From: Acidimicrobiales bacterium
GTDB taxonomy: Bacteria > Actinomycetota > Acidimicrobiia > Acidimicrobiales > RAAP-2
Assembly (NCBI GenBank): GCA_052143315.1
Contig: JBKQTE010000092.1
Location: 47,159 to 71,158 of the forward strand
DNA length: 24,000 bases
Reading direction: 5' to 3'
Shown: in pieces, positions 1,279 to 16,378 of the stretch
Layout: each line of letters starts with the position of its first letter
Numbering within the stretch: the stretch's first letter is position 1
The notes under the pieces: generated by a model
The model's input: only the letters and a program-made list of their open reading frames with translations
What the model was told of the DNA's origin: nothing
Databases searched by the model: none
Program-made: the position numbers and the translations under genes

Positions 1279-2292
1279 ATGACGGTACGGTTGGCGATCA
1301 ACGGGTTCGGGCGCACCGGACGGGCGCTGCTCCGCTCGGTGCTGGCCTCCCATCCCGAGATCGCGGTGGTGGCCATCAACGACCTCGGGGCGCCAGCTGC
1401 CCTGGCCCGACTGTTCGCCCGGGACTCGGTGCACGGCCGCTACCCCGAACCGGTGACGGTGGAAGGCACCACCATGGTGGTGGGCGAACGCCGGATCCCC
1501 CTCCTCGCCGAGCCCGACCCCAAGGCGCTCCCCTGGGGCGAGCTGGGGGTCGATGTCGTCGTCGAGTCCACCGGCAAGGGCACCAGCCGCGACAAGGCGG
1601 CGGCGCACCTCGATGCCGGCGCCACCCGGGTGGTGATCTCAGCGCCGGCCAAGGATCCCGATGCCACCTTCGTCATCGGGGTCAACGAGGAGCAGTTCGA
1701 CCCGGACCACGACTACATCATCTCCAACGCGTCGTGCACGACCAACTGCCTGGCCGTCCTGGCCAAGGTACTGGATGACGCCTTCGGCATCGAGGACGGC
1801 TTCATGACCACCGTGCACGCCTACACCGGGGACCAACAGCTGACCGACGCCCTGCACAAGGATCCCCGGAGGTCACGGGCGGCGGCCATCAACATCGTGC
1901 CGACCACCACCGGGGCGGCACGGGCCACCGGCCTGGTGCTCCCGTCCGTCAACGGCGTCCTCGACGGACTGGCGCTCCGGGTGCCGGTGCCGGACGCCTC
2001 GATCGTCGACCTGGTCGCCAACGTGCGCACCGAGACCACCGTCGACGATGTCAAGGCCGCCTACCGGGGCGCGGCGGACTCCGGTCGTCTGGCCGGCCTG
2101 CTCGAGTACTCCGAGGAGGCCCTCGTCTCCACGGACATCATCGGGTCCTCGGCGTCGTGCGTCTTCGACTCCGACCTGACCATGGTCCACGGGCGCCTGG
2201 TCAAGGTGCTCGGCTGGTACGACAACGAGTCGGGCTACTCGAGCCGGCTCGCCGATCTGGCCGCCATCGTCGGCGCCGCCACCCCCCGCTGA
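1279..2292 (+). CDS. gap: Glyceraldehyde-3-phosphate dehydrogenase (type I)
   Basis: MTVRLAINGFGRTGR NAD-binding N-terminus, catalytic SNASCTTNC motif, and WYDNESGYS near the C-terminus. ATG at 1279 is preceded by GAGAGGAG (1265-1272). The track ORF from 1231 adds 16 residues that do not look conserved. Confidence 0.93.
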   Translation: MTVRLAINGFGRTGRALLRSVLASHPEIAVVAINDLGAPAALARLFARDSVHGRYPEPVTVEGTTMVVGERRIPLLAEPDPKALPWGELGVDVVVESTGKGTSRDKAAAHLDAGATRVVISAPAKDPDATFVIGVNEEQFDPDHDYIISNASCTTNCLAVLAKVLDDAFGIEDGFMTTVHAYTGDQQLTDALHKDPRRSRAAAINIVPTTTGAARATGLVLPSVNGVLDGLALRVPVPDASIVDLVANVRTETTVDDVKAAYRGAADSGRLAGLLEYSEEALVSTDIIGSSASCVFDSDLTMVHGRLVKVLGWYDNESGYSSRLADLAAIVGAATPR

Positions 2293-2320
2293 CCGGTCGA
2301 CGAGGATCCGAGCCGCCACC

Positions 2321-2911
2321 ATGTTCCAGATACGCATCCACGGGCGAGGGGGCCAGGGTGTGGTCACCGCGGCCGAGGTGCTGTCGATGGCCGCCTTCGA
2401 CGAGGGGCGCCACGCCCAGGCGTTCCCGAGCTTCGGGTCCGAGCGCATGGGTGCCCCGGTCGTCGCCTTCTGCCGGATCGACGAGCGGCCCATCCGCAGT
2501 CGCGAGCCGGTGATGGAGCCCGACGCCCTGATCATCCAGGACGTCACCCTCGTCCACCAGGTCGACCTCTTCGCCGGCGTGTCGCCCGAGGCCTACGTCC
2601 TGGTGAACACCACCCGGAGCCTCGACGCCCTCGGGCTCGGCGAGGTCGCCCGCCACCTCCACCCCGAGCGCCTGCGCAACTGCCCGGCGACCGAGATCGC
2701 CCTCGCCGAGATCGGCCGGCCGGTACCCAACGCCGCGCTGATCGCCGGGTTCGCCGCCCTGACCGGCCAGATCTCCCTGGCCTCAGTCGAGCAGGCGCTC
2801 CGTCAGCGGTTCCCCGGCCCGATGGGCGAGCGCAACGTCGCCGCCGCCGATGCCGCCTATCACTACGTGATGCAACCGCAAGTCGAGCAGGCACATGCTG
2901 CGACAGATTGA
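2321..2911 (+). CDS. porG: Pyruvate/2-oxoacid:ferredoxin oxidoreductase, gamma subunit
   Basis: The N-terminus MFQIRIHGRGGQGVVTAAEVLSMAAF...SFGSERMGAPV matches the GRGGQG / ERxG signature of POR/KOR gamma subunits. The 196-aa size is typical. Starts 29 nt after gap. Confidence 0.85.
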   Translation: MFQIRIHGRGGQGVVTAAEVLSMAAFDEGRHAQAFPSFGSERMGAPVVAFCRIDERPIRSREPVMEPDALIIQDVTLVHQVDLFAGVSPEAYVLVNTTRSLDALGLGEVARHLHPERLRNCPATEIALAEIGRPVPNAALIAGFAALTGQISLASVEQALRQRFPGPMGERNVAAADAAYHYVMQPQVEQAHAATD

Positions 2912-4154
2912 GGGCTCACGGGCGGTGGCCGAGACGGTGGCCCACTGCCGGCCCGAGGTGGTCTGCGCCTATCCCATCTCCCCCCAGACCCACATCATCG
3001 AGGCGGTCGGCGCCATGGTCAAGGCCGGCGCCCTGTCTCCGTGCGAGTTCATCAACGTCGAGTCGGAGTTCGCGGCGATGTCGGTGTCCATCGGTGCCTC
3101 GGCGGCCGGGGCACGCGCCTACACCGCCACCGCCAGCCAGGGCCTGCTGTTCATGATGGAGGCCGTCTACAGCGCCTCCGGCCTGGGGCTTCCCATCGTG
3201 ATGACCCTGGCCAACCGGGCCATCGGAGCTCCCATCAACATCTGGAACGACCACAGCGACGCCATGGCGGTGCGCGACTCCGGGTGGGTCCAGCTGTTCG
3301 CCGAGACCAATCAGGAAGCCGCCGATCTCCATGTCCAGGCGTTCGTGATCGCCGAGCGGCTCTCCCTGCCGGTGATGGTCTGCATGGACGGCTTCATCCT
3401 CACCCATGCGGTCGAAGGCATCGACGTCCCCGAGCAGGCCGACGTCGACGCCTTCCTCCCGCCCTTCCGGCCACGCCAGGTGCTCGACCCCGACGATCCG
3501 GTCTCGATCGGGGCCATGGTCGGGCCCGAGGCGTTCGAGGAGGTGCGCTACCTGGCCCATCTCCGCCAGCTGGAGGCCCTCGACCTGATCCCCACGGTGT
3601 CGTCCGACTTCGCCGAACGTTTCGGCCGCCAGAGCGGGGGGCTGGTGCGGACCTACCGCACCGAGGACGCCGACACGGTGGTGGTGGCGCTCGGATCGGT
3701 GCTGGGCACCATCAAGGACGCGGTGGACGCCCGCCGCGATGCCGGCGACCGCCTGGGGGTGGTGGGGATCACCGCCTTCCGGCCGTTCCCCCGGGACGCG
3801 GTCCACCAGGCGCTGTCCGGGGCCCGACGCATCGTGGTGGTGGAGAAGGCGTTCAGTGTCGGGTTCGGGGGCGTGCTCTCCACCGACGTGGCCATGGCTA
3901 CCCACGAGACGGGGGGCTCGCTGCGGACCGTGGTGGCCGGGCTCGGCGGCCGCCCGATCACCCGCCTGTCCCTCGAGACGATGCTGGCCGATGCCTGCGG
4001 GGACCGACTCGGGCCCCTCACCTTCCTCGACCTCGACACCGGGATCGTCGAGCGTGAACAGGCGCGCATGGCCGCCGCCGAGCGGCCGGGCCCCTCCGCC
4101 GAGTACGTCCTCCGCGACCTCGCCTCCCGCCCGGCCGGGTCGGTGCAGCCATGA
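2895..4154 (+). CDS. porA: Pyruvate/2-oxoacid:ferredoxin oxidoreductase, alpha subunit
   Basis: The N-terminus IEGSRAVAETVAHCRPEVVCAYPISPQTHIIE matches the GNEAVA...YPITPQT-type alpha-subunit signature. 419 aa. Overlaps the porG end by 17 nt. Confidence 0.85.
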   Translation: MLRQIEGSRAVAETVAHCRPEVVCAYPISPQTHIIEAVGAMVKAGALSPCEFINVESEFAAMSVSIGASAAGARAYTATASQGLLFMMEAVYSASGLGLPIVMTLANRAIGAPINIWNDHSDAMAVRDSGWVQLFAETNQEAADLHVQAFVIAERLSLPVMVCMDGFILTHAVEGIDVPEQADVDAFLPPFRPRQVLDPDDPVSIGAMVGPEAFEEVRYLAHLRQLEALDLIPTVSSDFAERFGRQSGGLVRTYRTEDADTVVVALGSVLGTIKDAVDARRDAGDRLGVVGITAFRPFPRDAVHQALSGARRIVVVEKAFSVGFGGVLSTDVAMATHETGGSLRTVVAGLGGRPITRLSLETMLADACGDRLGPLTFLDLDTGIVEREQARMAAAERPGPSAEYVLRDLASRPAGSVQP

Positions 4155-5179
4155 CCGGGGTGCCGGTGCGCTTCTACCAGGTCGGGAGCTTCGCCGTCGG
4201 CAACCGGCTGCTCCACCCGGAGGATCGGACCGTCCAGTCGGATCCCGACCGCACCAACTCCCTGGACTCCGGACACCGCGCCTGCCAGGGGTGTGGCGAG
4301 GCCCTGGGTGCCCGCTACGCCCTCGATGCCGCCATGCGGGCCACCGGGGGCCGGCTGATGGCCGTGAACGCCACCGGGTGCCTGGAGGTGTTCTCCACCC
4401 CCTACCCGCAGACGTCGTGGCGGATCGCCTGGCTCCACTCGCTCTTCGGCAACGCCCCGGCGGTCGCCACCGGGGTGGCGGCGGCCATGAAGGTGAAGGG
4501 GCGCGCCGACGTCCGGGTGATCGGTCAGGCCGGCGACGGCGGGACGGTCGACATCGGCTTCGGCTGCCTGTCGGGAATGTTCGAGCGCAACGACGACGTG
4601 CTCTTCATCTGCTACGACAACGAGGCCTACATGAACACCGGCGTGCAGCGCTCCGGGGCAACACCTCCGGCGGCCCGGACGGCCACCACCGAGGCGGTGG
4701 GCAGCCAACCGGGGAACGTCTTCGGACAGGGGAAGGACCTTCCCCGCCTGGCCATGGCCCACGACATCCCCTATGTCGCCACCGCCACCGTCGCCGACCT
4801 CCACGACCTCGAGGGCAAGGTCGAGCGGGCCATGGACATCCACGGTGCCCGCTACCTGCACATCCTCGTCCCCTGCCCGCTCGGATGGGGCACCGCCTCG
4901 TGCGACACCATACGGGTGGCGCGACTCGCCCAGGAGACCGGGCTCTTCCCGGTGCTCGAAGCCGAGCACGGTCGGGTGACCTCGGTGTCCCCGATCCGCC
5001 ACCGGGTGCCGGTGGAGGAGTACCTGTCGATCCAACGCCGCTACGCCCACCTCTTCGGTGAACATCCGAGCGTGGAGGTGATCGCCCGGATCCAGGCGAT
5101 GGCCGACCACAACATCGCCAGGTACGGGCTCGACCCCCACCAGGTCGGCGATGCCGAACCGGAGGCGGGACGTCCGTGA
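4151..5179 (+). CDS. porB: Pyruvate/2-oxoacid:ferredoxin oxidoreductase, beta (ThDP-binding) subunit
   Basis: HRACQGCGE cluster-ligand motif and ThDP motif GDGGTVDIGFGCLSGMFERNDDVLFICYDNEAYMNTG. ATGA overlap with the porA stop (ATG 4151, TGA 4152-4154). Confidence 0.88.
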   Translation: MTGVPVRFYQVGSFAVGNRLLHPEDRTVQSDPDRTNSLDSGHRACQGCGEALGARYALDAAMRATGGRLMAVNATGCLEVFSTPYPQTSWRIAWLHSLFGNAPAVATGVAAAMKVKGRADVRVIGQAGDGGTVDIGFGCLSGMFERNDDVLFICYDNEAYMNTGVQRSGATPPAARTATTEAVGSQPGNVFGQGKDLPRLAMAHDIPYVATATVADLHDLEGKVERAMDIHGARYLHILVPCPLGWGTASCDTIRVARLAQETGLFPVLEAEHGRVTSVSPIRHRVPVEEYLSIQRRYAHLFGEHPSVEVIARIQAMADHNIARYGLDPHQVGDAEPEAGRP

Positions 5180-6804
5180 TCGAGCGCCCGTTCGCCATCA
5201 CCCTCGACGTCGGGTCGAGCCATGCCAACCACACCGGCTCGTGGCGCGTGGAGCGACCCGTGTACGTCGACCGCCTGCCGCCGTGCAGCAACGCCTGCCC
5301 GGCGGGCGAGAGCGTCCAGCAGTGGCTGTACCAGGCCGAGCCCGGCGACTACCAGGCGGCATGGCGGGCGCTGGTCGAGGACAACCCGTTCCCCGCGGTG
5401 ATGGGTCGAATCTGCTACCACCCGTGCGAGACGGCCTGCAACCGCGCCCAACTCGACGATGCCGTCGGGATCAACGCCGTCGAGCGGTTCCTGGGCGACC
5501 TGGCCATCCAGCGTGGCTGGAAACTGCCCCCCGCCGGTACGGAGACCGGCAGGCGCGTCCTCGTGATCGGTGCCGGACCCGCGGGGCTCAGCTGCGCCTA
5601 CCATCTGCGCCGGCTCGGTCACGGCGTCCGTCTGGTCGACTCGGCGAACGCGCTCGGAGGCATGATGCGCTACGGCATCCCCGCCTACCGGCTCCCCCGG
5701 GCGATCCTCGATGCCGAGATCGACCGGATCGTCGCCCTCGGCGTCGATGTCGGCCTCGGGCACACCGTCGAGGACGTCGAGTCCGAACGGGTAGAAGGCG
5801 GCTTCGATGCCGTCTTCCTGGCAGTGGGAGCGCAGTTGGCACGGCGCGTCGACATCCCCTCGGGCGACTCCACCCAGGTGCTCGACGCCCTGTCGCTGCT
5901 CCGCCAGGTGGCAGACGACGATCCCCCCCTGCTCGGGCGTCGCGTGGCCGTCTACGGCGGCGGTGACACCGCCCTCGACGCCGCCCGCACGGCACGACGG
6001 CTCGGGGCCACCGAGGCCGTCGTCGTCTACCGTCGCAACCGCGAACGCATGCCCGCCCACGGCGACGAGCTGGCGGAGGCCCTCGCCGAAGGGGTCACGG
6101 TTCGTTGGCTCTCCATCGTGAACCGGGTCGACCAGGGTCACCTGGTCCTCGAGAAGGTGCGGCTCGACGACGACGGGTTTCCCGTGCCCACCGGCGAGCT
6201 CGAGGAGCTCGATGCCGACTCGCTGGTGCTGGCGTTGGGCCAGGACACCGATCTGTCGCTCCTCGATCGGGCCGGGGACGTAACCGTCGAGGACGGCGTC
6301 GTCCAGGTCCACCCGACGATGATGACCGACGAGGATGGCGTCTTCGCCGGAGGCGATTCGGTCCCGTCGCCGCGCACGGCCACCGTGGCCATCGGCCACG
6401 GGAGGCGGGCGGCGGGCGGCATCGACGCCTTCCTGTCCGGCCGGCCGGACGTCGATTCCCCGCCCTCCGAGCTCGCCACCTTCGAACGCCTCAACACCTG
6501 GTACTTCGCCGATGCACCACCCACCCGGCGCCCGGAGCTGGAGCAGGCGCGGCGGGTGAGCACCTTCGACGAGGTCGTCGGCGGTCTCACCGAGGAGAAC
6601 GCGCTGTTCGAGGCCCGACGCTGCCTCTCGTGCGGGAACTGCTTCGAGTGTGACAACTGCTTCGGCGTCTGCCCGGACAACGCGGTGATCAAGCTGGGAC
6701 CGGGACAGCGCTACCGGTTCGACCTCGACTTCTGCAAAGGGTGCGGCATCTGCGCCCAGGAGTGCCCGTGCGGTGCCATCGACATGGTCCCCGAGGACAC
6801 CTGA
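5176..6804 (+). CDS. GltD-like (glutamate synthase small-subunit family) NAD(P)H-dependent flavin oxidoreductase fused to a C-terminal 2x[4Fe-4S] ferredoxin domain; probable electron-transfer partner of the POR
   Basis: N-terminal HTGSWRVERPVYVD resembles the TGxWRxxRP leader of POR delta subunits. This is followed by the GltD-type PPCSNACPAGE...NPFPAVMGRICYHPCETACNR. Dinucleotide folds VLVIGAGPAGLSCAYHL and VAVYGGGDTALDAARTA are present. The C-terminus has CFECDNCFGVCP and CKGCGICAQECP (two CxxCxxCxxxCP motifs). GTG 5176 overlaps the porB TGA (GTGA), with GGAGG at 5161-5165. Confidence 0.8.
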   Translation: MIERPFAITLDVGSSHANHTGSWRVERPVYVDRLPPCSNACPAGESVQQWLYQAEPGDYQAAWRALVEDNPFPAVMGRICYHPCETACNRAQLDDAVGINAVERFLGDLAIQRGWKLPPAGTETGRRVLVIGAGPAGLSCAYHLRRLGHGVRLVDSANALGGMMRYGIPAYRLPRAILDAEIDRIVALGVDVGLGHTVEDVESERVEGGFDAVFLAVGAQLARRVDIPSGDSTQVLDALSLLRQVADDDPPLLGRRVAVYGGGDTALDAARTARRLGATEAVVVYRRNRERMPAHGDELAEALAEGVTVRWLSIVNRVDQGHLVLEKVRLDDDGFPVPTGELEELDADSLVLALGQDTDLSLLDRAGDVTVEDGVVQVHPTMMTDEDGVFAGGDSVPSPRTATVAIGHGRRAAGGIDAFLSGRPDVDSPPSELATFERLNTWYFADAPPTRRPELEQARRVSTFDEVVGGLTEENALFEARRCLSCGNCFECDNCFGVCPDNAVIKLGPGQRYRFDLDFCKGCGICAQECPCGAIDMVPEDT

Positions 6805-6849
6805 GCCTGCACCGAACGACCACCCTTGTCCAGTGACCTTCGGCCCTGT

Positions 6850-6866
6850 CCGCCCGAACGGGGCGG
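6850..6866 (+). terminator. Weak candidate hairpin downstream of the por block
   Basis: CCGCCC (6850-6855) pairs with GGGCGG (6861-6866), with a 5-nt loop, about 46 nt after the stop at 6804. The stem is only 6 bp and there is no U-tract. Confidence 0.2.
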
Positions 6867-6973
6867 GAGCATGATGATCTGATGGTCACCAAGCACCTGC
6901 CGAGCGTGCCCGCCCCAGGGGCTGTCAGCGGGCGCTCACCGCACCGCCCACCGGTCTCGACGGGATCCGCCCG

Positions 6974-8092
6974 ATGACCTTCTTCGATCTCATCATCCGG
7001 AACCTGTGGTCGAGGAAGGCCCGATCGATCGGGCTGGCATGTGCCGTCGCCATCGCCGTGATGGCGGTGGTCACACTGGCCGTCACCAGCAGCGGCCTCG
7101 AGCAGTCGGCGGCGGCGGTCATATCGGTGGGGAAGGCCGACTTCACGGTGGTGCAGAAGGGGGTGTCGGACACCTTGTCCAGCACCATCGACCGACAGGA
7201 GCTGGACCGTCTGAGCCAGACCCCGGGCGTAGCCAGCGCCGTGGGGGTGCTGGTCGAGACCGAGCACATCAACGCCGACAACCCCGTCTTCATCGAGATC
7301 GGGATCAATCCGGCCGACCTGGCGCCGTTCGGCGTGACCGTGGTGAAGGGAACCTCGTACTCGCCCACCGCCACCAACCAGGTCATGCTGGGGTGGCGGG
7401 CGGCGGCCAACTTCGGCCTGCAGGTCGGGGACCAATTCCACGCCAACGGGACCTGGAACACGGTGGTCGGCATCTACTCGACGGGGAACTCGTTCGGCGA
7501 CGCGGGAGCCATGTTCCCCCTCCCCGCCATCCAGGGGTACAACCGGGTGCCGGGGATCGTCACCCTGGCCTTCGTCAAGGTCGAGCCCGGCGTCTCGGCC
7601 CAGGCGGTGGCGACCCGCGTCGATGAAGATCAGCCGGAGCTCACCACCATCCGCACCGCCGCCCAGTTCGGGAGGGCCGATCGCGACCTGGTCTACCTGC
7701 AGGCGGCAGTCAACGGGAGCACGGTGCTGGCCATCGTCATCGGAGCCGTCATCGTGGGCGACACCATGCTTCTGTCGCTGTACGAACGGACCCGTGAGTT
7801 CGGGCTGCTCCGGTCGATCGGCTGGACCCGTCGTCGAACCGTCGGCCTGTTGCTGGGGGAGAGCCTGTTGCTGGCGGTGGTGGGTGCGGCCATCGGCGTC
7901 GGGCTGTCGTTCGCGGTGGCCACCGGACTGGCCCACCTTCCGGCCCTGAACGGGATCCTCCACCCCGACTTCACCGCCGGGGCGTTCTGGAGAGCGCTGT
8001 TCACCGCCCTCGTGATGACCTTCATCGGAGCGCTCTACCCGACGACGCGAGCTGCCATTCTCTCGCCGCTCAAGGCCCTCAGCTATGAGTGA
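6974..8092 (+). CDS. ABC transporter permease, FtsX/MacB-like
   Basis: N-terminal TM helix (SIGLACAVAIAVMAVVTLAV), a ~220-aa extracytoplasmic segment, then three C-terminal TM helices with the FtsX-type ERTREFGLLRSIGWTRR loop. Overlaps the downstream ATPase gene by 8 nt. Confidence 0.8.
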   Translation: MTFFDLIIRNLWSRKARSIGLACAVAIAVMAVVTLAVTSSGLEQSAAAVISVGKADFTVVQKGVSDTLSSTIDRQELDRLSQTPGVASAVGVLVETEHINADNPVFIEIGINPADLAPFGVTVVKGTSYSPTATNQVMLGWRAAANFGLQVGDQFHANGTWNTVVGIYSTGNSFGDAGAMFPLPAIQGYNRVPGIVTLAFVKVEPGVSAQAVATRVDEDQPELTTIRTAAQFGRADRDLVYLQAAVNGSTVLAIVIGAVIVGDTMLLSLYERTREFGLLRSIGWTRRRTVGLLLGESLLLAVVGAAIGVGLSFAVATGLAHLPALNGILHPDFTAGAFWRALFTALVMTFIGALYPTTRAAILSPLKALSYE

Positions 8093-8795
8093 CGCCGTCG
8101 ACGTCCCGCTTGCCGTCGACGCCAGGAAGCTGACCCGCGAGTTCCCGGGCCCGGTCATCGCGCTGTCCGGTGTCGACCTGACGGTGCAGTACGGGGAGAC
8201 GGTCGCCATCACCGGTCCGTCCGGCTGTGGCAAGTCGACGCTGCTCCACCTACTGGCGGCCATCGACTTCCCCACCTCGGGCACCGTGGCCGTCGGCGGG
8301 CACGACCTGAGCCAGGTCGAGGACGTGAGCGCCTTCCGCCGCTACGAGGTCGGTCTGGTGTTCCAGTTCCACAATCTGTTGCCCCAGATCCCCGCCCTCG
8401 CCAACGTCGAACTGCCGATGTTCGGCACCAACCGGTCCGCCCGCCAGCGGGATGACCGTGCCCGCGCGCTGCTGGCCGAGGTCGGCCTCGAGGGACGCGA
8501 GCAACGGCTGCCGACGGAGCTCTCCGGAGGGGAGCGGCAGCGAGTGGCGATCGCCCGCGCCCTGGCCAACCAGCCCAAGGTGCTGCTGGCCGACGAGCCC
8601 ACCGGAAGCCTCGACTCGGCGTCGACCGAGCACTTCCTGGCCCTGCTCGAACGGCTCGGCGCCGCCGGCATGACCATCGTGATGGTGACCCACGACGACG
8701 ACGTGGCGGCCCACGCCCACCGCATCATCGAGATGATCGACGGAGCGGTCGTCGGCGAGCACCTGCCCGGCCCGGCCACCGCCGGCACCGCCTGA
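8085..8795 (+). CDS. ABC transporter ATP-binding protein (LolD/MacB-type)
   Basis: Walker A GPSGCGKST, Q-loop, ABC signature LSGGERQRVAIARAL, Walker B VLLADEPT, H-loop VTHD. Confidence 0.92.
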   Translation: MSDAVDVPLAVDARKLTREFPGPVIALSGVDLTVQYGETVAITGPSGCGKSTLLHLLAAIDFPTSGTVAVGGHDLSQVEDVSAFRRYEVGLVFQFHNLLPQIPALANVELPMFGTNRSARQRDDRARALLAEVGLEGREQRLPTELSGGERQRVAIARALANQPKVLLADEPTGSLDSASTEHFLALLERLGAAGMTIVMVTHDDDVAAHAHRIIEMIDGAVVGEHLPGPATAGTA

Positions 8796-8852
8796 CGTCC
8801 ACCGTCCCCGCCATCCGGCAAGGCCCGGAGCCCAGGAGCGCCGGCGTGCCCC

Positions 8853-9011
8853 CTACCCCTCGGTGAGCTCCTTCACCTCGCTCAACCGATGCTCGAGGCT
8901 GGAGAGCTCCAGGTCGAGCGCCTCCCGGGTGACGGCTGCGTGCTCGAGCTCCTCCAGGCGTCGTTCCAGCTCGTCGATCCGGCTGGACAGCGCCTCGATG
9001 TCGGTGGTCAT
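8853..9011 (-). CDS. 52-aa predicted coiled-coil micro-protein (below the 60-aa cut-off of the ORF track)
   Basis: My translation of the minus strand gives MTTDIEALSSRIDELERRLEELEHAAVTREALDLELSSLEHRLSEVKELTEG, ending in TAG (8853-8855). The ATG (9011-9009) overlaps the upstream gene's TGA as ATGA. GAGGAGGA lies 6-7 nt upstream. Third codon positions are almost all G/C, as in neighbouring genes. Confidence 0.5.
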   Translation of the reverse strand: MTTDIEALSSRIDELERRLEELEHAAVTREALDLELSSLEHRLSEVKELTEG

Positions 9012-10645
9012 CCGCTTCCTCCTCTGTTCGTCGGATGGTGGAGCTGCGCCCCGGTGTCGCCGGGATCCACCAGCTCGTGCCTCCGACCGTAGGGCGGGTC
9101 GGGGTCGGCGAAAAGGGCCGAAGGTCCCGATCGGGCCGGAAGGGCGTCGACGGCCAGGCCCACGGCCTCGGCCGGCGCCGTCCCGGAGGTGTCGATGACG
9201 GCGCTAGGCGTCCACGGGTCCATCGATCGCTGCATCGCCGCTCTCACCTCCGGGGTCGCCTCGGAGCTGTCGGCGCGTTCCGACAGGCGTCGCCGGATCC
9301 GTTGATCCGCCACCTCGGCGGCCGCGTCACACCTCAGCTCGACGAGATCGGCGGCGGCGCCATCGGCCACCGAACGCACCTCGGCCCGCCGAGCGGCACT
9401 GGTCCACGACGCGTCGAGGACGACGGACTCACCGAGTCCGAGCAGTCGCTCGGCTGTCTGCATCAGTTCGGCGTACACAGACTCGGTGGCGGCAGGGACG
9501 TACCGGCCGGAGAGGTACCCGGGCACCTCGGGACCGCCCGGGGCGGCCAGGCTCCTCCGCACCTCATCGGAGCGGAGCACGGTCCATCCCCGGGCTGCGC
9601 CGAGGCCGGCGGCGACGGTGGACTTCCCCGTGCCCGGTAGCCCTCCCACCAGCACGAGCGTGACGGCCGCCCGTCGGAGGTGGGTCAGGGCCAGCTGGTG
9701 GAAGGTTCCGGCCTCGATCCGGGCCGCATCGGCTCCCTGGGCAGCCCGGAGACAGCAGACCTTGGCCCGGACATAGGCCCGGGAGGCGCAGTAGTAGTGG
9801 ACCAGACCGTCGGGCACGGGATCGGCCGCCAGCTCCCGGTAGCGAGCAAGGAGGTGCTCGGCGGCGTCGCCCCGGCCCAGATGCTCGAGGTCCATGGCCA
9901 GGAAGGCCACGTCGGCAGCCACGTCGGCGAAGCGCAGCCGGTCGGAGAATTCGAGGCAGTCGAGGATCCGAACACCGTCGTCGAGGCAGAAGATGTCCTC
10001 GGCCTGGAGATCCCCATGGCCGTCGCACACCCGCCCCGCACGGATCCGGGTCTCGAACAGCGGCTCCCGGCCCCTGGTCCAGCGGTCGGCCAGCCACCGG
10101 ATCTCCAGATCGACCGTCTCGTCCAGGACGGTCCCCAGGTAGGGGCGGGTCTCCACGAAGTTGTCGGACCAGGCCGCCCACAGCGACGCACCGGTCGCCG
10201 CCTCGGCGATGGCGGGCGAACGCGCCGCCCGGGCGTGGAACGCCACCAGGGTCTGGGCCACCGGCTCGAGCCACCTGTCGAGATCCGGTCCCCGGCGGGC
10301 CAGCTCCGCCAGCCGGCGTTCCTCGGGCATACGTCTCATGACCACCACGGAGTCGACGGTCCGACCTTCGAACCGGATGTCGGCCACACCCAGATAGACG
10401 TCCGGGGCCAGACGCCGATTGAGCTCGACCTCGCGTTCGCAGTCGATCCGTCGGGCTTCGGGCTGCGTGAAGTCGACGAACTCGAAGCGAACCGGCTTCC
10501 GCACCTTGTAGACCCGGTCACCGACGAAGAACAGCCTCGAGACATGGGTCTCCACGATGCGGTCCGGCTGCTCTTCGCCTGCCGAGTCGCATCCCACCTC
10601 CGGCCTCCTCCATGCGCCAGGCCCCGCCCGGCCGGGCATGACCAC
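9008..10645 (-). CDS. Fusion of an aminoglycoside-phosphotransferase-like (protein-kinase-fold) domain and a C-terminal P-loop kinase/ATPase domain
   Basis: N-terminal half: ETHVSRLFFVGDRVYKVRKP, catalytic-loop-like CDGHGDLQAEDIF, and ILDCLEF. C-terminal half: Walker A LVGGLPGTGKST. The start is uncertain: ATG at 10645, or GTG at 10597 preceded by GGAGGAGG. The last ~40 residues are low-complexity. Confidence 0.75.
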   Translation of the reverse strand: MVMPGRAGPGAWRRPEVGCDSAGEEQPDRIVETHVSRLFFVGDRVYKVRKPVRFEFVDFTQPEARRIDCEREVELNRRLAPDVYLGVADIRFEGRTVDSVVVMRRMPEERRLAELARRGPDLDRWLEPVAQTLVAFHARAARSPAIAEAATGASLWAAWSDNFVETRPYLGTVLDETVDLEIRWLADRWTRGREPLFETRIRAGRVCDGHGDLQAEDIFCLDDGVRILDCLEFSDRLRFADVAADVAFLAMDLEHLGRGDAAEHLLARYRELAADPVPDGLVHYYCASRAYVRAKVCCLRAAQGADAARIEAGTFHQLALTHLRRAAVTLVLVGGLPGTGKSTVAAGLGAARGWTVLRSDEVRRSLAAPGGPEVPGYLSGRYVPAATESVYAELMQTAERLLGLGESVVLDASWTSAARRAEVRSVADGAAADLVELRCDAAAEVADQRIRRRLSERADSSEATPEVRAAMQRSMDPWTPSAVIDTSGTAPAEAVGLAVDALPARSGPSALFADPDPPYGRRHELVDPGDTGAQLHHPTNRGGSG

Positions 10646-10815
10646 CCGTGCGACCCTGCTCTCCAGAGTGGTCCGAACCGGGGCGCCGGCACAGAGCCGA
10701 AGGTCACAAGGTGGACCGGCGACGACCGGCCGGGACGGGGACCTTTGGCCCTTGCGGGAACCGGCCCGTCCGCCCGATCATGGAGGTGACCAGGCATCCT
10801 TCGAAGGGGACGACC

Positions 10816-13179
10816 ATGCAAGCACGGACGGCGACTCTCCCCGGGGAGGCCGGAGCGGCCCCCCTCGCCGCTCGCGTCCGCTGCCGCTACCGGGTCGGTG
10901 GCGTCGTCCAGGGAGTCGGCTTCCGACCCTTCGTGTACGTCACCGCCACCGGGCTCTCGCTCACCGGGTGGGTGCGGAACGGCTCCTCGGGCGTCACCGT
11001 CGAGGTCGAGGGCCAACCGCACCAGGTGGCGGCGTTCGAGCGACGGCTGCACGACCAGCCTCCCCGATCGGCCATCGTCGAGAGCATCGTCAAAGAGGAG
11101 CTGGCGCCCCGCGGAGGCACCGGCTTCGTCATCGAGGGCTCCGGTGCCGCTGGGGACGTCCGGACGCTGGCCTCCCCCGACATCGCCACCTGCGAGGCCT
11201 GCTTGGAGGAGATGGCCGATCCCACCGACCGTCGATACCGGCACCCGTTCATCACCTGCACCGACTGCGGGCCCCGCTTCACCATCATCACCCGCCTGCC
11301 CTACGACCGACCGGCCACCACCATGGCCGACTTTCCCCTGTGCGCCGAGTGCGCCACCGAGTACGCCGATCCTGGCGACCGTCGGTTCCATGCCCAGCCC
11401 ATCGCCTGTCCCGACTGCGGTCCGGAGCTCGAGCTGGTGGTGCCCGGCCAGCCGGTGCCGGTCGGGGAGGCGGCCCTCGTCCGGGCCCGCTCGCTCCTCG
11501 CCGGCGGCGCCATCCTGGCGGTGAAGGGACTCGGCGGCTACCACCTGGTCTGCGACGCCACCGACCAGGCAGCCGTCGCCGAGCTGCGCCGGCGCAAGCG
11601 GCGCGGGGACAAGCCCCTCGCCGTGATGGTGGCCGATCTCGGAGCGGCCCGAGTCCTAGCCGAGATCGGCCAGGCCGAGGCGGACCTGCTCACCTCCCCC
11701 CGGCGCCCGATCGTCCTCCTGGCCCGCCAGGCGGGCCCGGAACGGGTCGCTCCGGCGGTGGCGCCCGGCAGTCCCGACCTCGGGCTGATGCTGGCCTACA
11801 CCCCCCTGCACCGGCTGCTGTTCGGGCTGCCCGGCGATGCGGCCGGTACCCGGGCCCTGGTCATGACGTCGGGGAACCTGGGCGGCGAGCCGATCGTCTA
11901 CCGGGACCATGAGGCGATGACCCGGCTGGCGCCACTGGTCGACGGCTGGCTGCGCCACGACCGCCCGATCGCCGTCCCGTGCGACGACTCGGTGTCCCGT
12001 GTGGTCGACGGCGAGGAGCTGCCCATCCGCCGGTCCCGCGGCTACGCCCCGCTGCCGGTGACGCTTCCTTTCGAGGTGCCGGCCATCCTGGCCGTGGGGG
12101 GGGACGTGAAGAACGCCTTCTGCGTGGCCGAGGGCCACCACGCCTGGATGAGCCAGCACATCGGCGACATGGACGACCTGGCCACCCTGGACGCCCTCGG
12201 TGCCACCGAGCAGAGGCTGGAATGCCTCACCGGCGTGGTGCCCGAGCTGGTGGTCGCCGACCGCCACCCCGCCTACCGCTCCGGCGGATGGGCGTTCCGC
12301 CATGCCGCCGGGCGCCCTCACGTCAGGGTCCAGCACCACCACGCCCATATCGCCTCGGTGATGGGCGAGCACGGACTCGACGGCCGGGAGCGGGTCATCG
12401 GTGTCGCCTTCGACGGCACCGGCTACGGGTCGGACGGGGCGGTGTGGGGCGGCGAGGTCCTCGTTGCCGACTACGAGGGATTCGAGCGGTTCGCCCATCT
12501 GGCCTACGTCCCCCTGCCGGGCGGCGACGCCAGCGTGGAGCGCCCCTACCGCATGGCACTGGCCCACCTGGCCGCCGCCGGCGTGGACTGGGATCCCGAC
12601 CTCCCGCCGGTGGCCGGCTGCCCGGGTGCGGAACGTGCGGTGCTGGCCCACCAGCTGGCCACCGGGTTCAACTGTGTCCCGACCTCCAGCATGGGCCGAC
12701 TGTTCGACGCGGTGGCCTCCCTGGCCGGCGTCCGGCAGATCGCCGACTTCGAGGCCCAGGCGGCCATCGAGCTCGAGGGGGTCTCCCGTGATGTCCCCCC
12801 CGACGAGGGCTACGGGTTCGCCCTCGACCCGGCGGGCGGCGCCGGCCAGCCACTGGTGGCCGACGCCACACCGGTGATCGCCGCCGTGGTCGCCGACCGG
12901 CGTGGCGGTGTCCCGACCGCCCTGATCGGTGCCCGCTTCCACGCCGCAGTGGCCGACCTGGTGGTGGCGGTGGCCGGGTCGGCCCGCCGGCGGAGCGGCC
13001 TTGGCACGGTGGTGCTGTCGGGTGGCGTCTTCCAGAACGCTCTGCTGCTCGGGGCGGTGCGGACCCGGTTGCGGGCCGGCGGGTTCATCGTGCTCTGTCC
13101 GCGCCTCCTTCCCCCGAACGACGGGGGCCTCGCCCTCGGCCAGGTGCTGGTGGGCGCGCGAGCCAGAAGGGTCGGCTGA
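10816..13179 (+). CDS. hypF: [NiFe]-hydrogenase maturation carbamoyltransferase HypF
   Basis: Acylphosphatase motif VQGVGFRPFVY. Two zinc-finger pairs: CEAC-x18-CTDC (from nt 11191) and CAEC-x18-CPDC. YrdC-like KGLGGYHLVCDA and a Kae1-like C-terminal half are present. I prefer ATG 10816 (GAAGGGGA 6 nt upstream) over the track start at 10648. Confidence 0.93.
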   Translation: MQARTATLPGEAGAAPLAARVRCRYRVGGVVQGVGFRPFVYVTATGLSLTGWVRNGSSGVTVEVEGQPHQVAAFERRLHDQPPRSAIVESIVKEELAPRGGTGFVIEGSGAAGDVRTLASPDIATCEACLEEMADPTDRRYRHPFITCTDCGPRFTIITRLPYDRPATTMADFPLCAECATEYADPGDRRFHAQPIACPDCGPELELVVPGQPVPVGEAALVRARSLLAGGAILAVKGLGGYHLVCDATDQAAVAELRRRKRRGDKPLAVMVADLGAARVLAEIGQAEADLLTSPRRPIVLLARQAGPERVAPAVAPGSPDLGLMLAYTPLHRLLFGLPGDAAGTRALVMTSGNLGGEPIVYRDHEAMTRLAPLVDGWLRHDRPIAVPCDDSVSRVVDGEELPIRRSRGYAPLPVTLPFEVPAILAVGGDVKNAFCVAEGHHAWMSQHIGDMDDLATLDALGATEQRLECLTGVVPELVVADRHPAYRSGGWAFRHAAGRPHVRVQHHHAHIASVMGEHGLDGRERVIGVAFDGTGYGSDGAVWGGEVLVADYEGFERFAHLAYVPLPGGDASVERPYRMALAHLAAAGVDWDPDLPPVAGCPGAERAVLAHQLATGFNCVPTSSMGRLFDAVASLAGVRQIADFEAQAAIELEGVSRDVPPDEGYGFALDPAGGAGQPLVADATPVIAAVVADRRGGVPTALIGARFHAAVADLVVAVAGSARRRSGLGTVVLSGGVFQNALLLGAVRTRLRAGGFIVLCPRLLPPNDGGLALGQVLVGARARRVG

Positions 13180-13439
13180 TGTGCCTGGCCGTTCCCGGAC
13201 GGGTGGTCCGGACGTGGTCGATCGACGGCACCCTCATGGCCCAGGTGGACTTCGGTGGCGTGCGCAAGGATGTCTGCCTGCAGTACCTGCCTGAGGCGGT
13301 GATCGACGACTACGTGATCGTCCATGTCGGCTTCGCCATCCAGCAGCTCGACGAGCGTTCCGCCCTCGAGACGTTGGAGGCCTTCGAGCGGATGGGCGTC
13401 CTGGCCGAGGAGCTCGGCGACGGGGGAACCCGGGGATGA
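13179..13439 (+). CDS. hypC: Hydrogenase maturation chaperone HypC/HupF family
   Basis: The N-terminal [10 protein letters not shown] carries the essential Cys2, and [12 protein letters not shown] is present. 86 aa. The ATG shares one nt with the hypF TGA (TGATG). Confidence 0.9.
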
Positions 13440-14548
13440 AGTACCTCGACGAGTTCGCCGACCCGGACCTGGCCCGTCACCTGCTCGACCGGATCCGAGC
13501 CATCACCACCCGCCGGTGGGCGATCATGGAGGTGTGCGGGGGCCAGACCCACTCGATCATCCGCCACGGCATCGACCAGCTGTTGCCCGGGGAGATCGAG
13601 CTGATCCACGGTCCCGGGTGCCCGGTCTGCGTCACCCCGGTGGAGATCGTCGACAGGGCCCTGGCCATCGCCGCCCGGCCCGACGTCATCTTCTGCTCGT
13701 TCGGGGACATGCTGCGGGTGCCGGGAAGCCGCGGGGACCTCTTCGGGGTGAAGAGCGCCGGCGCTGACGTGCGGGTGGTCTACTCGCCCCTCGACGCCCT
13801 CGAGGTGGCCCGGGCCAATCCCGAGCGGGAGGTGGTCTTCTTCGGCATCGGCTTCGAGACCACGGCGCCGGCCAACGCCATGACCGTCCACCAGGCGGAG
13901 CGGCTGGGTATCGCCAACTTCTCGCTGCTGGTCTCCCACGTGCTGGTGCCGCCGGCCATCGCCGCCATCATGGAGTCGCCCAACTGCAGGGTGCAGGGGT
14001 TCCTGGCCGCCGGGCACGTGTGCAGCGTCATGGGCACCCACCAGTACCCCGAGCTGGCCGCCACCTACCGGGTCCCCATCGTGGTCACCGGGTTCGAGCC
14101 ACTGGACATCCTCGAGGGTATCCGACGGACCGTCGCCCAGCTCGAGTCGGGTCGGTACCAGGTGGAGAATGCCTACCGGCGGGCGGTGACCGATGAGGGC
14201 AACGTGGCCGCCCAGCAGATGTTGGAGGAGGTCTTCGAGGTCACCGACCGCTCCTGGCGGGGCATCGGGACGATCCCGCAGAGCGGCTGGAGGCTGTCCG
14301 ACCGCTACCGTGCCTACGACGCCGAGGACCGCTTCGGCATCGGCTCGGTCCGCACCGACGAGTCGGCGGCGTGCCGGGCCGGTGAGGTGCTCCAGGGCCT
14401 GATCAAGCCCAACGAGTGCGAGGCGTTCGGTCGGGAGTGCACGCCACGCAGCCCGCTCGGCGCCACCATGGTGTCCTCGGAAGGGGCCTGTGCCGCCTAC
14501 TACCTCTACCGCCGGCTCGAGCTGACCGTGGCGGGCCCCAATGGTTGA
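13436..14548 (+). CDS. hypD: Hydrogenase maturation protein HypD
   Basis: MKYLDEF N-terminus, with motifs [21 protein letters not shown] and [12 protein letters not shown] overlap with the hypC stop. Confidence 0.93.
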
Positions 14549-15623
14549 CCGGGGGCGGGCGGAGCGGCCCCTCCCCGACTTCGAGGGCTGGACGTGCCCG
14601 GTGCCGCTGCGAGACTCGCCGGTCATCGTGATGGGCCACGGGGGGGGCGGCGCCATGTCGGCCGAGCTCGTCGAGCACCTGTTCCTCCCCGCCTACGGTG
14701 AGGCCGCCTCCGCCGAGCTCGGCGACGCCGCCGTCCTGTCCCTGGGTGGCGGCCACCGGCTGGCCTTCTCCACCGACTCGTTCGTCGTCAAGCCGGTGTT
14801 CTTCCCCGGTGGCTCCATCGGCGACCTCGCCGTCAATGGGACGGTCAACGACCTGGCCATGTCCGGGGCCCGTCCGATGGTGCTGTCGACCGCCTTCATC
14901 CTCGAGGAGGGGACGACCCTCTCCGACCTCGGCCGTATCGCCATGTCGCTGGGGTCGGCGGCCCTGGCCGCCGGGGTCCGGCTGGTCACCGGCGATACCA
15001 AGGTGGTCGACCGCGGGTCGGGGGACGGCGTCTACATCAACACGGCGGGCATCGGGGTGCTCGATGACGGCGTCGACATCCGTCCCGAGCGGGCCCGGGC
15101 CGGTGACGTGGTCATCGTCAGCGGCGACATCGGCGTGCACGGCGTGGCCGTGATGAGCTGCCGGGAGGGAGTCGGCTTCACCACCGACCTGGAGAGCGAC
15201 ACGGCACCGCTGCACGGGCTGGTGGCCGCCATGCTGGGCACCGGAGCCGACGTCCACGCGCTGCGGGACCCGACCCGCGGCGGCGTGGCCGCCTCGCTCA
15301 ACGAGATCGGCCGGGCCGCCAAGGTCGGGATCGCACTGGTCGAGCGTGACCTTCCCGTCCCCGATGGGGTCAGGGACGCCTGCGGCCTGCTGGGGCTCGA
15401 CCCCTTGCACGTGGCCAACGAGGGGAAGCTGCTGGCCTTCGTGCCGCCGGACGACGCAGACCGGGTGCTCGAGGCCATGCACCGGCACCCCCTGGGTGGC
15501 GACGCCCGGGCGGTCGGGGTCTGCGTCGAGGACCATCCCGGGATGGTGGTGGCCCGCACGGCTCTCGGCGGTACCCGCGTCGTCGACCTGCCGGTGGGCG
15601 AGCAGCTGCCGCGGATCTGTTGA
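14541..15623 (+). CDS. hypE: Hydrogenase maturation protein HypE (carbamoyl dehydratase)
   Basis: WTCPVPL...[14 protein letters not shown]-terminus, a PurM/AIR-synthase-like body, and a C-terminal PRIC motif ending on the essential Cys. 8-nt overlap with hypD. Confidence 0.93.
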
Positions 15624-16378
15624 GGATGACGGCCTCGGAACCGGGTCAGGCGCTCTTCGCCCGCTACGCCTACCCCCCCAACGAGCTCGGCTACTGCGGC
15701 CCGACGGACGGGTCGCCCCTCCTCCAGCGGGCGTCGGGTGATCAGGCCATGGACATCGCCGCCCATGCCCGTCAGTTCGAGGGGGCGTGGACCTATCTGG
15801 AGCTCATCGCTTCGGCCGTCGGGATCGACGACCCCCTCGACCGCCGGGTGGTCCAGGCCTACTGGGTGGGCAACGACCTGCTCGACCGGGTCGCCCCGTC
15901 CGTCCTGGTGGCCAGGCTGGGCCAGGAGCTCGAGGGACAGGTCGGCGGGTTCTGGAGCCGCATGGGCCCGGCGGCCGAGGAGCTGGCGCTCCCCCACCAC
16001 AGCTTCCACGTGTTCGCCGTCTACCCCTGGGTCGGCCTCCTCGGCTCTGCCGGCGACGTCCCCCTGTCGGTGCTGGACCGGTGCCGGATACGGTGGGGCG
16101 AGGTGGTGGGCATCGACGGGGAGCGGGCCACCGTCCGGTCCCGGCCGCTCCGGTGGGACGGCGACGAGCTGTCGTTGGGGCCCGAGCGGGAGGAGGCGGT
16201 GCGCTGGTCCTCGTCCGGTCGGTCGCTGGTCGGGGGCATCGTCCCCGGCGACCATGTGTCGCTCCACTGGGACTGGGTCTGCGACCGTCTGGGTGCGGCC
16301 GAGCTGGGGGCGCTGGAGCTCACCAGCGCCCGTCAGCTCGAACTGACCAACACCCAGCTTCGGGAAGGAGCCCGCTGA
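15620..16378 (+). CDS. Conserved hypothetical protein coupled to hypE; the C-terminal half resembles a HypC-like OB-fold
   Basis: Begins at TTG 15620 (overlapping the hypE TGA) or at ATG 15626. The N-terminal motif is YAYPPNELGYCGP. G/C third positions match the hyp genes. I recall this type of protein being annotated as a DUF family next to hypE in actinobacteria, but cannot verify that here. Confidence 0.65.
   Translation: MRMTASEPGQALFARYAYPPNELGYCGPTDGSPLLQRASGDQAMDIAAHARQFEGAWTYLELIASAVGIDDPLDRRVVQAYWVGNDLLDRVAPSVLVARLGQELEGQVGGFWSRMGPAAEELALPHHSFHVFAVYPWVGLLGSAGDVPLSVLDRCRIRWGEVVGIDGERATVRSRPLRWDGDELSLGPEREEAVRWSSSGRSLVGGIVPGDHVSLHWDWVCDRLGAAELGALELTSARQLELTNTQLREGAR

Follow-up and report, generated by a model that had tools for sequence, protein, structure and literature searches.

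How does a pyruvate oxidoreductase (POR) dispose of its electrons when the gene for its small ferredoxin-like subunit is missing from the operon? This question is raised by a locus in a 24,000-nt window from an Acidimicrobiales bacterium (contig JBKQTE010000092.1, C92, positions 47159–71158), part of a high-GC Acidimicrobiales-like genome bin of 3.5 Mb that is 93% complete. In this window, which is the whole stretch of DNA analysed and to which the coordinates below refer except indicated otherwise, the genes for the gamma, alpha and beta subunits (porG, porA and porB) are followed by a gene for a 542-residue flavoprotein. As developed below, the missing delta subunit (PorD) is split around this flavoprotein, and we put at roughly 0.65 the probability that the four genes encode a self-contained, ferredoxin-independent 2-oxoacid (most likely pyruvate):NADP+ oxidoreductase.

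The four genes lie on the + strand. porG (2321–2911; PF01558, 133 bits; TIGR02175, 181.4 bits for a cut-off of 81.1) codes for the gamma subunit of a 2-oxoacid oxidoreductase of the Por/Vor type and overlaps porA (alpha subunit, 2895–4154; POR_N, 224 bits, and PFOR_II, 84.5 bits) by 17 nt, so that no delta gene fits between the two. porA overlaps porB (beta subunit with the thiamine pyrophosphate (TPP) site and the proximal [4Fe-4S] cluster, 4151–5179; TPP_enzyme_C) by ATGA, and the fourth gene (5176–6804; NF009410/PRK12771, 747.2 bits for a cut-off of 516) starts with a GTG at 5176 within the porB stop (GTGA), preceded by a GGAGG 9 nt 5′ of the start. These coordinates agree with the initial annotation, which had pointed out both the porG–porA overlap without an intervening delta gene and the GTGA start of the 542-codon open reading frame (ORF). 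Among the features of a Por/Vor-type 2-oxoacid:ferredoxin oxidoreductase (OFOR), gamma, alpha and beta subunits, including the four cysteines of the proximal [4Fe-4S] cluster, are present; a free delta subunit of about 80–105 residues encoded between gamma and alpha is absent.

The two ends of the flavoprotein both resemble PorD. At the C-terminus, a 2x[4Fe-4S] ferredoxin domain (residues 488–541, positions 6637–6798, + strand, motifs CFECDNCFGVCP and CKGCGICAQECP) had been recognised in the initial annotation, and residues 487–540 indeed match TIGR02179 (PorD_KorD) with 67.8 bits for a cut-off of 60.05. At the N-terminus, residues 5–32 (5188–5271, + strand, PFAITLDVGSSHANHTGSWRVERPVYVD) correspond to the PorD arm. 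When residues 1–60 are used alone, all matches are to the fusion family itself or to families of PorD (NF040684, E 3.5e-4; TIGR02179, E 0.0067). In a splice test, residues 1–32 were joined in silico to residues 481–542, with the C-terminus alone and a shuffled leader as controls. The joined sequence scored 83.9 bits against TIGR02179 (profile positions 5–77), compared to 60.6 bits for the C-terminus alone (positions 25–77) and 60.3 bits with the shuffled leader. The same was observed with NF040684, where the scores were 83.1, 57.1 and 60.1 bits, respectively. The delta-like leader, proposed previously from its residues, therefore adds 23 bits on TIGR02179 over its shuffled control and is more than a chance resemblance.

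The initial annotation had also suggested aligning both terminal segments with PorD. The joined sequence covers residues 3–84 of the 85 in the solved PorD 9bt4_G (PFAITLDVGSSHANHTGSWRVERPVYVD aligned with PIGGTCEPGSTLANKTGGWRNFRPVYIY) and scores 73 bits against it, compared to 50 for the intact protein. Conservation, cluster ligands and neighbouring gene families were counted over 81 sequences or loci. The arm residues N18, T20, G21, W23, R24 and Y30 are invariant in the 81 homologues, and so are the eight cysteines of the delta domain. These comparisons confirm that the arm and the C-terminal domain together make up a full PorD.

No other delta subunit was found. The fusion is the only match over the TIGR02179 cut-off in the 93% complete genome, and no stand-alone PorD was detected there by this profile search. 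The next PorD-like match (on contig C31) was rejected as a delta candidate, being part of a FrhB/FdhB-family protein; the remaining PorD-like matches were rejected as generic dicluster domains in longer proteins. Similarly, no free PorD over cut-off was present in Accumulibacter phosphatis UW-1, Streptomyces dysideae, Rhodoblastus acidophilus, Rubrivivax sp. A210 or Aquabacterium humicola, and the best PorD-like match in each of these five genomes, all of which bear the four-gene cassette, was the fusion itself. A separate delta subunit encoded elsewhere, which the initial annotation had named as counter-evidence if required for activity, was thus found neither in this genome nor in these five carriers.

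What separates the two halves of PorD is a module of the GltD/NfnB/StnC type. The main part of a GltD-type Fe-S domain (PF14691, Fer4_20) occupies residues 35–114 (5278–5517, + strand) with C37, C41, C80, C84 and C88, and is followed by the FAD and NAD(P)H dinucleotide domains (residues 127–409, 5554–6402, + strand; PF07992, Pyr_redox_2, 118.7 bits). The latter carry the motifs GAGPAG (132–137), GGGDTA (261–266) and VYRRnrerMPA (with Y285, R286 and R287). Residues 35–114 correspond only to Fer4_20 profile positions 30–112; positions 1–29 are found at residues 460–488 (the fragment alone has an E-value of 1.1e-4), that is, beyond the flavin domains. This displaced piece (residues 460–487, 6553–6636, + strand), with C483 and C486, is the 'eeA..EA.RCL.CG' helix and CxxC, here EARRCLSCG, that normally opens GltD, NfnB and DPD. 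Rejoining it in front of residues 34–118 raised the Fer4_20 score to 96.4 bits (profile positions 2–112), compared to 63.8 without the fragment. The domain thus has all seven cysteines and lacks the canonical N-to-C order, and the inserted 2x[4Fe-4S]-FAD-NADPH module is, by its sequence, a circularly permuted one. The initial annotation was right in calling the protein a GltD/NfnB-type Fe-S flavoprotein with two dinucleotide folds, as judged by the Fer4_20 and Pyr_redox_2 matches; it placed the Fe-S region at the N-terminus and missed the permutation.

The consequence of this permutation lies at the junction. The displaced piece is joined directly to the first PorD cluster motif, and C483 and C486 of the flavoprotein cluster and C489, C492, C495 and C499 of the delta clusters form a single unbroken cysteine-rich stretch. 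Because the module is permuted and both sets of ligands share this stretch, the redox chains of the flavoprotein and of the delta subunit are covalently tied, a closer wiring than the split described in the initial annotation implied. The 15 cluster cysteines (7 GltD-type and 8 delta) are 100% conserved, and GAGPAG, GGGxTA and YRR..MPA are invariant as well. GltD, NfnB and DPD hold two clusters by means of seven cysteines and one non-cysteine ligand. Since this ligand pattern is conserved, the fusion subunit is predicted to hold four [4Fe-4S] clusters and FAD.

Structural comparison gave a consistent picture. An AlphaFold2 (AF2) model of the 542-residue protein (pLDDT 84.7, pTM 0.83) matched, in decreasing order, 8oh5_C (StnC), 9bov_A (the large subunit of the Caldicellulosiruptor Nfn-ABC complex), 9n5u_A, and then NfnB, GltD and DPD (E 1e-45 to 1e-27). 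The large subunits of the Nfn and Stn enzymes, GltD and the N-terminal half of DPD share with it the Fer4_20, FAD and NADPH fold, with query-normalised TM-scores of about 0.65–0.78. 8oh5_C and 9bov_A were the top matches in both sequence and fold; their alignments start at PPC..ACP (query residue 32) and end in RCLxCG past the flavin domains (around residue 492). This suggests that these two chains may share the permuted layout, the permutation test itself having been run on the fusion alone. The YRR..MPA motif is shared by the StnC and NfnABC chains in the alignment, which favours NADPH as the pyridine nucleotide. In contrast to the present protein, where the module is embedded in the delta subunit of an OFOR, the modules of Nfn, Stn, GltD and DPD feed FMN, a [2Fe-2S]/FAD partner or a NuoF-like arm.

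The core subunits encoded next to the fusion resemble those of a POR. The best solved relative of PorA is the POR alpha chain 9bt4_B (356 bits, compared to 220 for oxalate oxidoreductase), whose substrate/TPP motif YPITP, in YPITPQTHI, aligns with YPISPQTHI of PorA. PorB matches 9bt4_C with 288.6 bits (209 for oxalate oxidoreductase), and its CxxC, TGC and PCP cysteines align. Pyruvate is favoured as the substrate because PorA and PorB are nearest to the solved POR and because the neighbours described below include pyruvate and phosphoenolpyruvate (PEP) enzymes.

These features can be assembled into a putative reaction scheme. Pyruvate would be decarboxylated on TPP by PorA and PorB with formation of acetyl-CoA, and two electrons would exit via the [4Fe-4S] cluster of PorB. 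The PorD ferredoxin domain (residues 488–541), held on the POR core by the PorD arm (residues 5–32), would receive them on its two clusters and hand them on to the two Fer4_20 clusters (one with C37, C41, C483 and C486, the other with C80, C84, C88 and one non-cysteine ligand). FAD would receive the electrons from these clusters and deliver a hydride to NADP+. Electrons from pyruvate thus probably go straight to NADP+ and not to free ferredoxin. All consequences of such a reading that could be checked at the sequence level were borne out. We infer formation of the complex, this electron path, the use of NADP(H) over NAD(H), pyruvate as the substrate and the oxidative direction. The midpoint potentials E0′ are about −500 mV for acetyl-CoA + CO2/pyruvate and about −320 mV for NADP+; the oxidative direction is favoured for this reason, and pyruvate synthesis with NADPH alone, the 'synthase' direction envisaged in the initial annotation, is thermodynamically unfavourable.

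The cassette is widespread. A survey using one genome per species, a census of delta-less por operons that the initial annotation had called for, identified at least 597 loci carrying the fusion, of which 80 were retained for neighbourhood analysis. These 80 span four phyla: Actinomycetota, Pseudomonadota (Alpha-, Beta- and Gammaproteobacteria), Acidobacteriota and Planctomycetota. In every one of the 80, porB is the gene immediately before the fusion, usually with a start/stop overlap, and the order porG-porA-porB-fusion was found in 64/64 loci with enough upstream DNA. No conserved fifth gene was observed, since each neighbour family is limited to 7 or fewer of the 81 loci. The recurrent neighbours are PPDK/PEP synthase (ppsA), malic enzyme and glyceraldehyde-3-phosphate dehydrogenase, all pyruvate- or PEP-linked. 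The protein tree is mostly coherent with phylum (5 label changes needed, compared to a minimum of 3), and a recent mobile element was rejected on this basis as the cause of the distribution. As read from this tree, the cassette is old and has undergone some transfer.

Several points weigh against an NADP+-linked pyruvate enzyme. A full-text literature search returned no published biochemical or structural study of the fusion family, nor any paper on a POR delta–flavoprotein fusion or an NADP-linked four-subunit POR. The preference for NADPH would follow from a motif shared with NADPH enzymes. The nearest solved relatives of the flavin module are electron-bifurcating enzymes, so that simple two-electron transfer is an assumption. 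An AceE-type pyruvate dehydrogenase is also encoded in the genome, which makes the physiological role of the cassette less certain. Finally, PorG, PorA and PorB all score under the NCBIfam equivalog cut-offs of the pyruvate models; pyruvate specificity is therefore not secured and there is room for another 2-oxoacid. The architecture and NADP link could then be as proposed, with 2-oxoisovalerate or other branched-chain acids, 2-oxobutyrate or an aryl-glyoxylate as the substrate, and the Vor and Pad models do score close behind the pyruvate-type ones for the core subunits. We nevertheless regard such a substrate as rather unlikely, as all core subunits match pyruvate-type models and the solved POR 9bt4 best and the informative neighbours are pyruvate or PEP enzymes. 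Still less probable is that ferredoxin is the main acceptor and the flavoprotein a side branch, either a tethered valve resembling a ferredoxin:NADP+ reductase or a device for NADPH-driven re-reduction and protection of clusters under oxygen, the enzyme serving ferredoxin and NADP(H) as needed. The delta clusters belong to the type that ordinarily reduces ferredoxin, and the hosts are largely aerobic or facultative and have pyruvate dehydrogenase as well; moreover, the 2-oxoglutarate oxidoreductase (KGOR) of Azoarcus evansii is said to reduce both ferredoxin and NADP+. However, the flavoprotein cluster is covalently tied to a delta cluster and all FAD/NADPH motifs are strictly conserved, which argues for the main path and not an accessory one, and no ferredoxin gene is conserved beside the cassette in the 81 loci.

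The bifurcating relatives raise a different possibility, in which the FAD would be a bifurcating or confurcating centre. It would split the electrons of NADPH, sending one uphill into the POR clusters for the conversion of acetyl-CoA and CO2 to pyruvate and the other to an unlinked high-potential acceptor. StnC and NfnABC subunits are indeed the nearest solved relatives of the module, the cassette is immediately preceded by ppsA and gap, which would fit a gluconeogenic block, and Ni-CO-dehydrogenase and hydrogenase maturation genes are nearby. If true, aerobic or facultative CO- and H2-oxidisers would gain a ferredoxin-free route from acetyl-CoA and CO2 to pyruvate. However, the Nfn and Stn transhydrogenases have a second, high-potential branch (NfnA or StnAB), and the 81 loci show no conserved partner for such a branch, whether NfnA-like, StnAB-like or other; nor was a [2Fe-2S] domain found by Pfam in the 542-residue protein. 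On these grounds we rate bifurcation and pyruvate synthesis as quite improbable. GltD and DPD use the same module in a non-bifurcating way, carboxylation with NADPH only would be uphill by about 120–180 mV per electron on commonly quoted potentials, and only close relatives have ppsA and gap next to the cassette. Lastly, the 542-residue protein might serve a different partner and merely sit next to porGAB, as NF009410 relatives are found beside a sulfite-reductase-like gene or beside a nifJ-type pyruvate:ferredoxin oxidoreductase (PFOR) with a DHO_dh-like gene. This we consider very hard to reconcile with a fusion that adjoins porB in every retained locus, with a PorD arm conserved only in the POR-linked clade and with the lack of any other delta subunit in this genome or the five carriers named above.

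How does the proposed NADP+-linked enzyme compare with known systems? In the four-subunit PorGDAB represented by 9bt4, gamma, alpha and beta subunits are homologous to those described here and the joined delta halves align over nearly all of 9bt4_G. The differences are that here there is no free delta gene, that the delta subunit comes last in the gene order with a flavoprotein of about 455 residues inserted between arm and cluster domain, and that the predicted acceptor is NADP+ instead of ferredoxin. The A. evansii KGOR (KorABC) is reportedly a bacterial OFOR with FAD that reduces NADP+ via a flavoprotein subunit of about 63 kDa. It is set apart by its reported architecture: a two-subunit KorAB core specific for 2-oxoglutarate with a separate third subunit KorC, in contrast to the Por-type core and delta fusion here.

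PadEFGHI of Azoarcus/Aromatoleum, a phenylglyoxylate:NAD+ oxidoreductase, likewise combines a Por-like core of four subunits (PadE gamma, PadG alpha, PadI beta and PadF delta) with a pyridine-nucleotide-linked flavoprotein. However, PadF is a free delta subunit of 78 residues and PadH belongs to another flavoprotein family. PadH was accordingly rejected as a model for the flavoprotein, since NF045765 gave no match to the fusion; its best match in the genome was an FAD oxidoreductase in the CO dehydrogenase (CODH) cluster. The PadF model matched only the C-terminal domain of the fusion (31.5 bits, cut-off 150), and the PadE, PadG and PadI models scored 144, 275 and 180 bits for cut-offs of 300, 700 and 700, respectively. 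The eukaryotic pyruvate:NADP+ oxidoreductase (PNO) of Euglena and Cryptosporidium, the analogy drawn in the initial annotation, has the same predicted net reaction and an NADPH flavoprotein fused to an OFOR. PNO is a single-chain nifJ-type PFOR with a C-terminal FMN/FAD module of the cytochrome-P450-reductase type. Here, in contrast, the subunits are separate, and Pfam detected no flavodoxin, FAD_binding_1 or NAD_binding_1 domain. The analogy thus holds for the predicted reaction and for the difference in architecture; the closest functional precedents would be bacterial (KorABC and PadEFGHI) and not only eukaryotic. Taken together, these comparisons suggest that the enzyme works like these systems and belongs to none of them, and would thus represent a new architecture among the pyridine-nucleotide-linked OFORs.

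The boundaries of the family were also considered. The fusion matches NF009410 over its full length (residues 8–540 on profile positions 21–565 of 566), and homologues of 541–545 residues align with it from residue 1–2. In NCBIfam, NF009410/PRK12771 is named 'NAD(P)-binding protein', and JGI names for relatives are '2-oxoacid:acceptor oxidoreductase delta subunit' and 'glutamate synthase beta subunit-like'. The NF009410 cut-off was rejected as a marker of POR linkage: 55 proteins pass it in 401 Actinomycetota genomes, and about 7 of them show the full-length pattern of the window. Many of the other passers are longer proteins or have different neighbours. Sister clades of the flavoprotein lie beside other partners and lack the TGSWR arm, the PorD arm being conserved only in the POR-linked clade, of which it would be the mark.

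Two low-GC Actinomycetota loci, L089 (5581–6657 and 7042–8727) and L090 (7027–8745, − strand), hold a homologue with 38–40% identity beside a NIR_SIR sulfite/nitrite-reductase-like gene. No POR genes were found within about 6 kb of these homologues. Their clade has the permuted module and the C-terminal dicluster domain, without the TGSWR arm and without CP in the first dicluster motif, and may serve some other enzyme as its NAD(P)H port. In another locus, L092 (G125:C12:57000-72000), a homologue with 54% identity and a degenerate arm (6769–8403, − strand) lies next to a nifJ-type PFOR in two ORFs, POR_N+PFOR_II (5189–6928, − strand) and POR-EKR-Fer4-TPP_C (3057–5192, − strand), and to a DHO_dh-like gene (1816–3060, − strand). 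The same type of flavoprotein thus adjoins a PFOR that retains its own ferredoxin domain; the split of this PFOR may reflect a frameshift or a genuine two-gene form. Given these varied partners, the permuted module with its C-terminal dicluster domain appears to be an NAD(P)H port of general use. A reusable principle would be that of a circularly permuted GltD module acting as a plug-in NADPH port, spliced into Fe-S subunits of different enzymes.

An orthologous cassette may already have been seen at the expression level. In Accumulibacter phosphatis (NC_013194, locus 2891327–2904946), the only Por-type alpha of the genome lies inside the cassette. The 'PFOR CAP2UW1_2510-2512' of Accumulibacter has been described as highly expressed, laterally acquired, ferredoxin-using and tied to hydrogen production; three genes were counted and the fourth, flavoprotein gene goes unmentioned (PMC5148189). 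As the genome has only one Por-type alpha, this PFOR appears to be the cassette, and the account (PMC5148189) appears to provide indirect expression evidence for the family, its fourth gene having been overlooked.

OFORs are usually read in genomes as ferredoxin-dependent 'anaerobic' enzymes. The cassette is present in at least about 600 species representatives, and many carriers live in soil or wastewater as aerobes or facultative organisms (among them Streptomyces, relatives of Bradyrhizobium, Rubrivivax, Rhodoferax, Acidimicrobiia and Accumulibacter). Annotation divides it into a 'PFOR' and an unrelated 'NAD(P)-binding protein', the family being found only under generic database names. If the enzyme is NADP+-linked as proposed, reconstructions that send its electrons to ferredoxin and hydrogen, for example in Accumulibacter, would be wrong here and NADPH would be supplied directly.

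In the window, the cassette is preceded on the + strand by the 3′ part of ppsA (PEP synthase, 1–1176; NF005057, 386.9 bits, profile positions 418–796 of 798), and by gap, a type I glyceraldehyde-3-phosphate dehydrogenase gene (1231–2292; TIGR01534, 399.2 bits, cut-off 367.2). The spacing is 54 nt between ppsA and gap and 28 nt between gap and porG; among the 80 related loci, only 4 have gap ahead of porG. ppsA starts upstream of the window, its N-terminal part lying at 8788–9999 of the directly preceding stretch (contig 37160–47158). The same stretch, in its own coordinates, carries genes for a cooF-like 4Fe-4S protein (1551–2273), a 652-residue CooS-like protein of the Prismane/Ni-CO-dehydrogenase family (2270–4228, 613 bits), a CooC-like P-loop protein (4232–5107), a 416-residue FAD/NAD(P) oxidoreductase with Pyr_redox_2 and Rubredoxin_C domains (5107–6357) and a phosphofructokinase (pfk, 7746–8741). 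The arrangement suggests a CODH equipped with an NAD(P)-linked flavoprotein of its own and neighbouring an NADP-linked POR, and as a whole the block resembles a group of low-potential enzymes in which CODH and POR each have their own pyridine-nucleotide flavoprotein. The genome encodes a second OFOR of the KorA/KorB type (C91:70000-86000; 6852–8897 and 5791–7236, both − strand), with a gamma-alpha fused KorA of 681 residues and no GltD-like gene beside it.

Downstream of the cassette, after 169 nt, a MacB/FtsX-type permease (6974–8092, + strand) and an ABC ATPase (8085–8795, + strand) are encoded, which are not kept beside the cassette in related loci. Three ORFs of the + strand (9680–10789, 17091–18125 and 18122–19867) gave no Pfam match, the first of them having none in NCBIfam either, and two of the − strand (13310–14656 and 18095–20068) gave no NCBIfam match. 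In such GC-rich DNA, some of these long ORFs may be shadow frames instead of genes. No hydrogenase structural genes were seen within the window, and its + strand carries the hydrogenase maturation genes hypF (10648–13179, 720 bits) and hypD (13436–14548, 512 bits), followed by genes for a hypE-like AIRS protein (14541–15623) and a DUF6390 protein (15620–16378).

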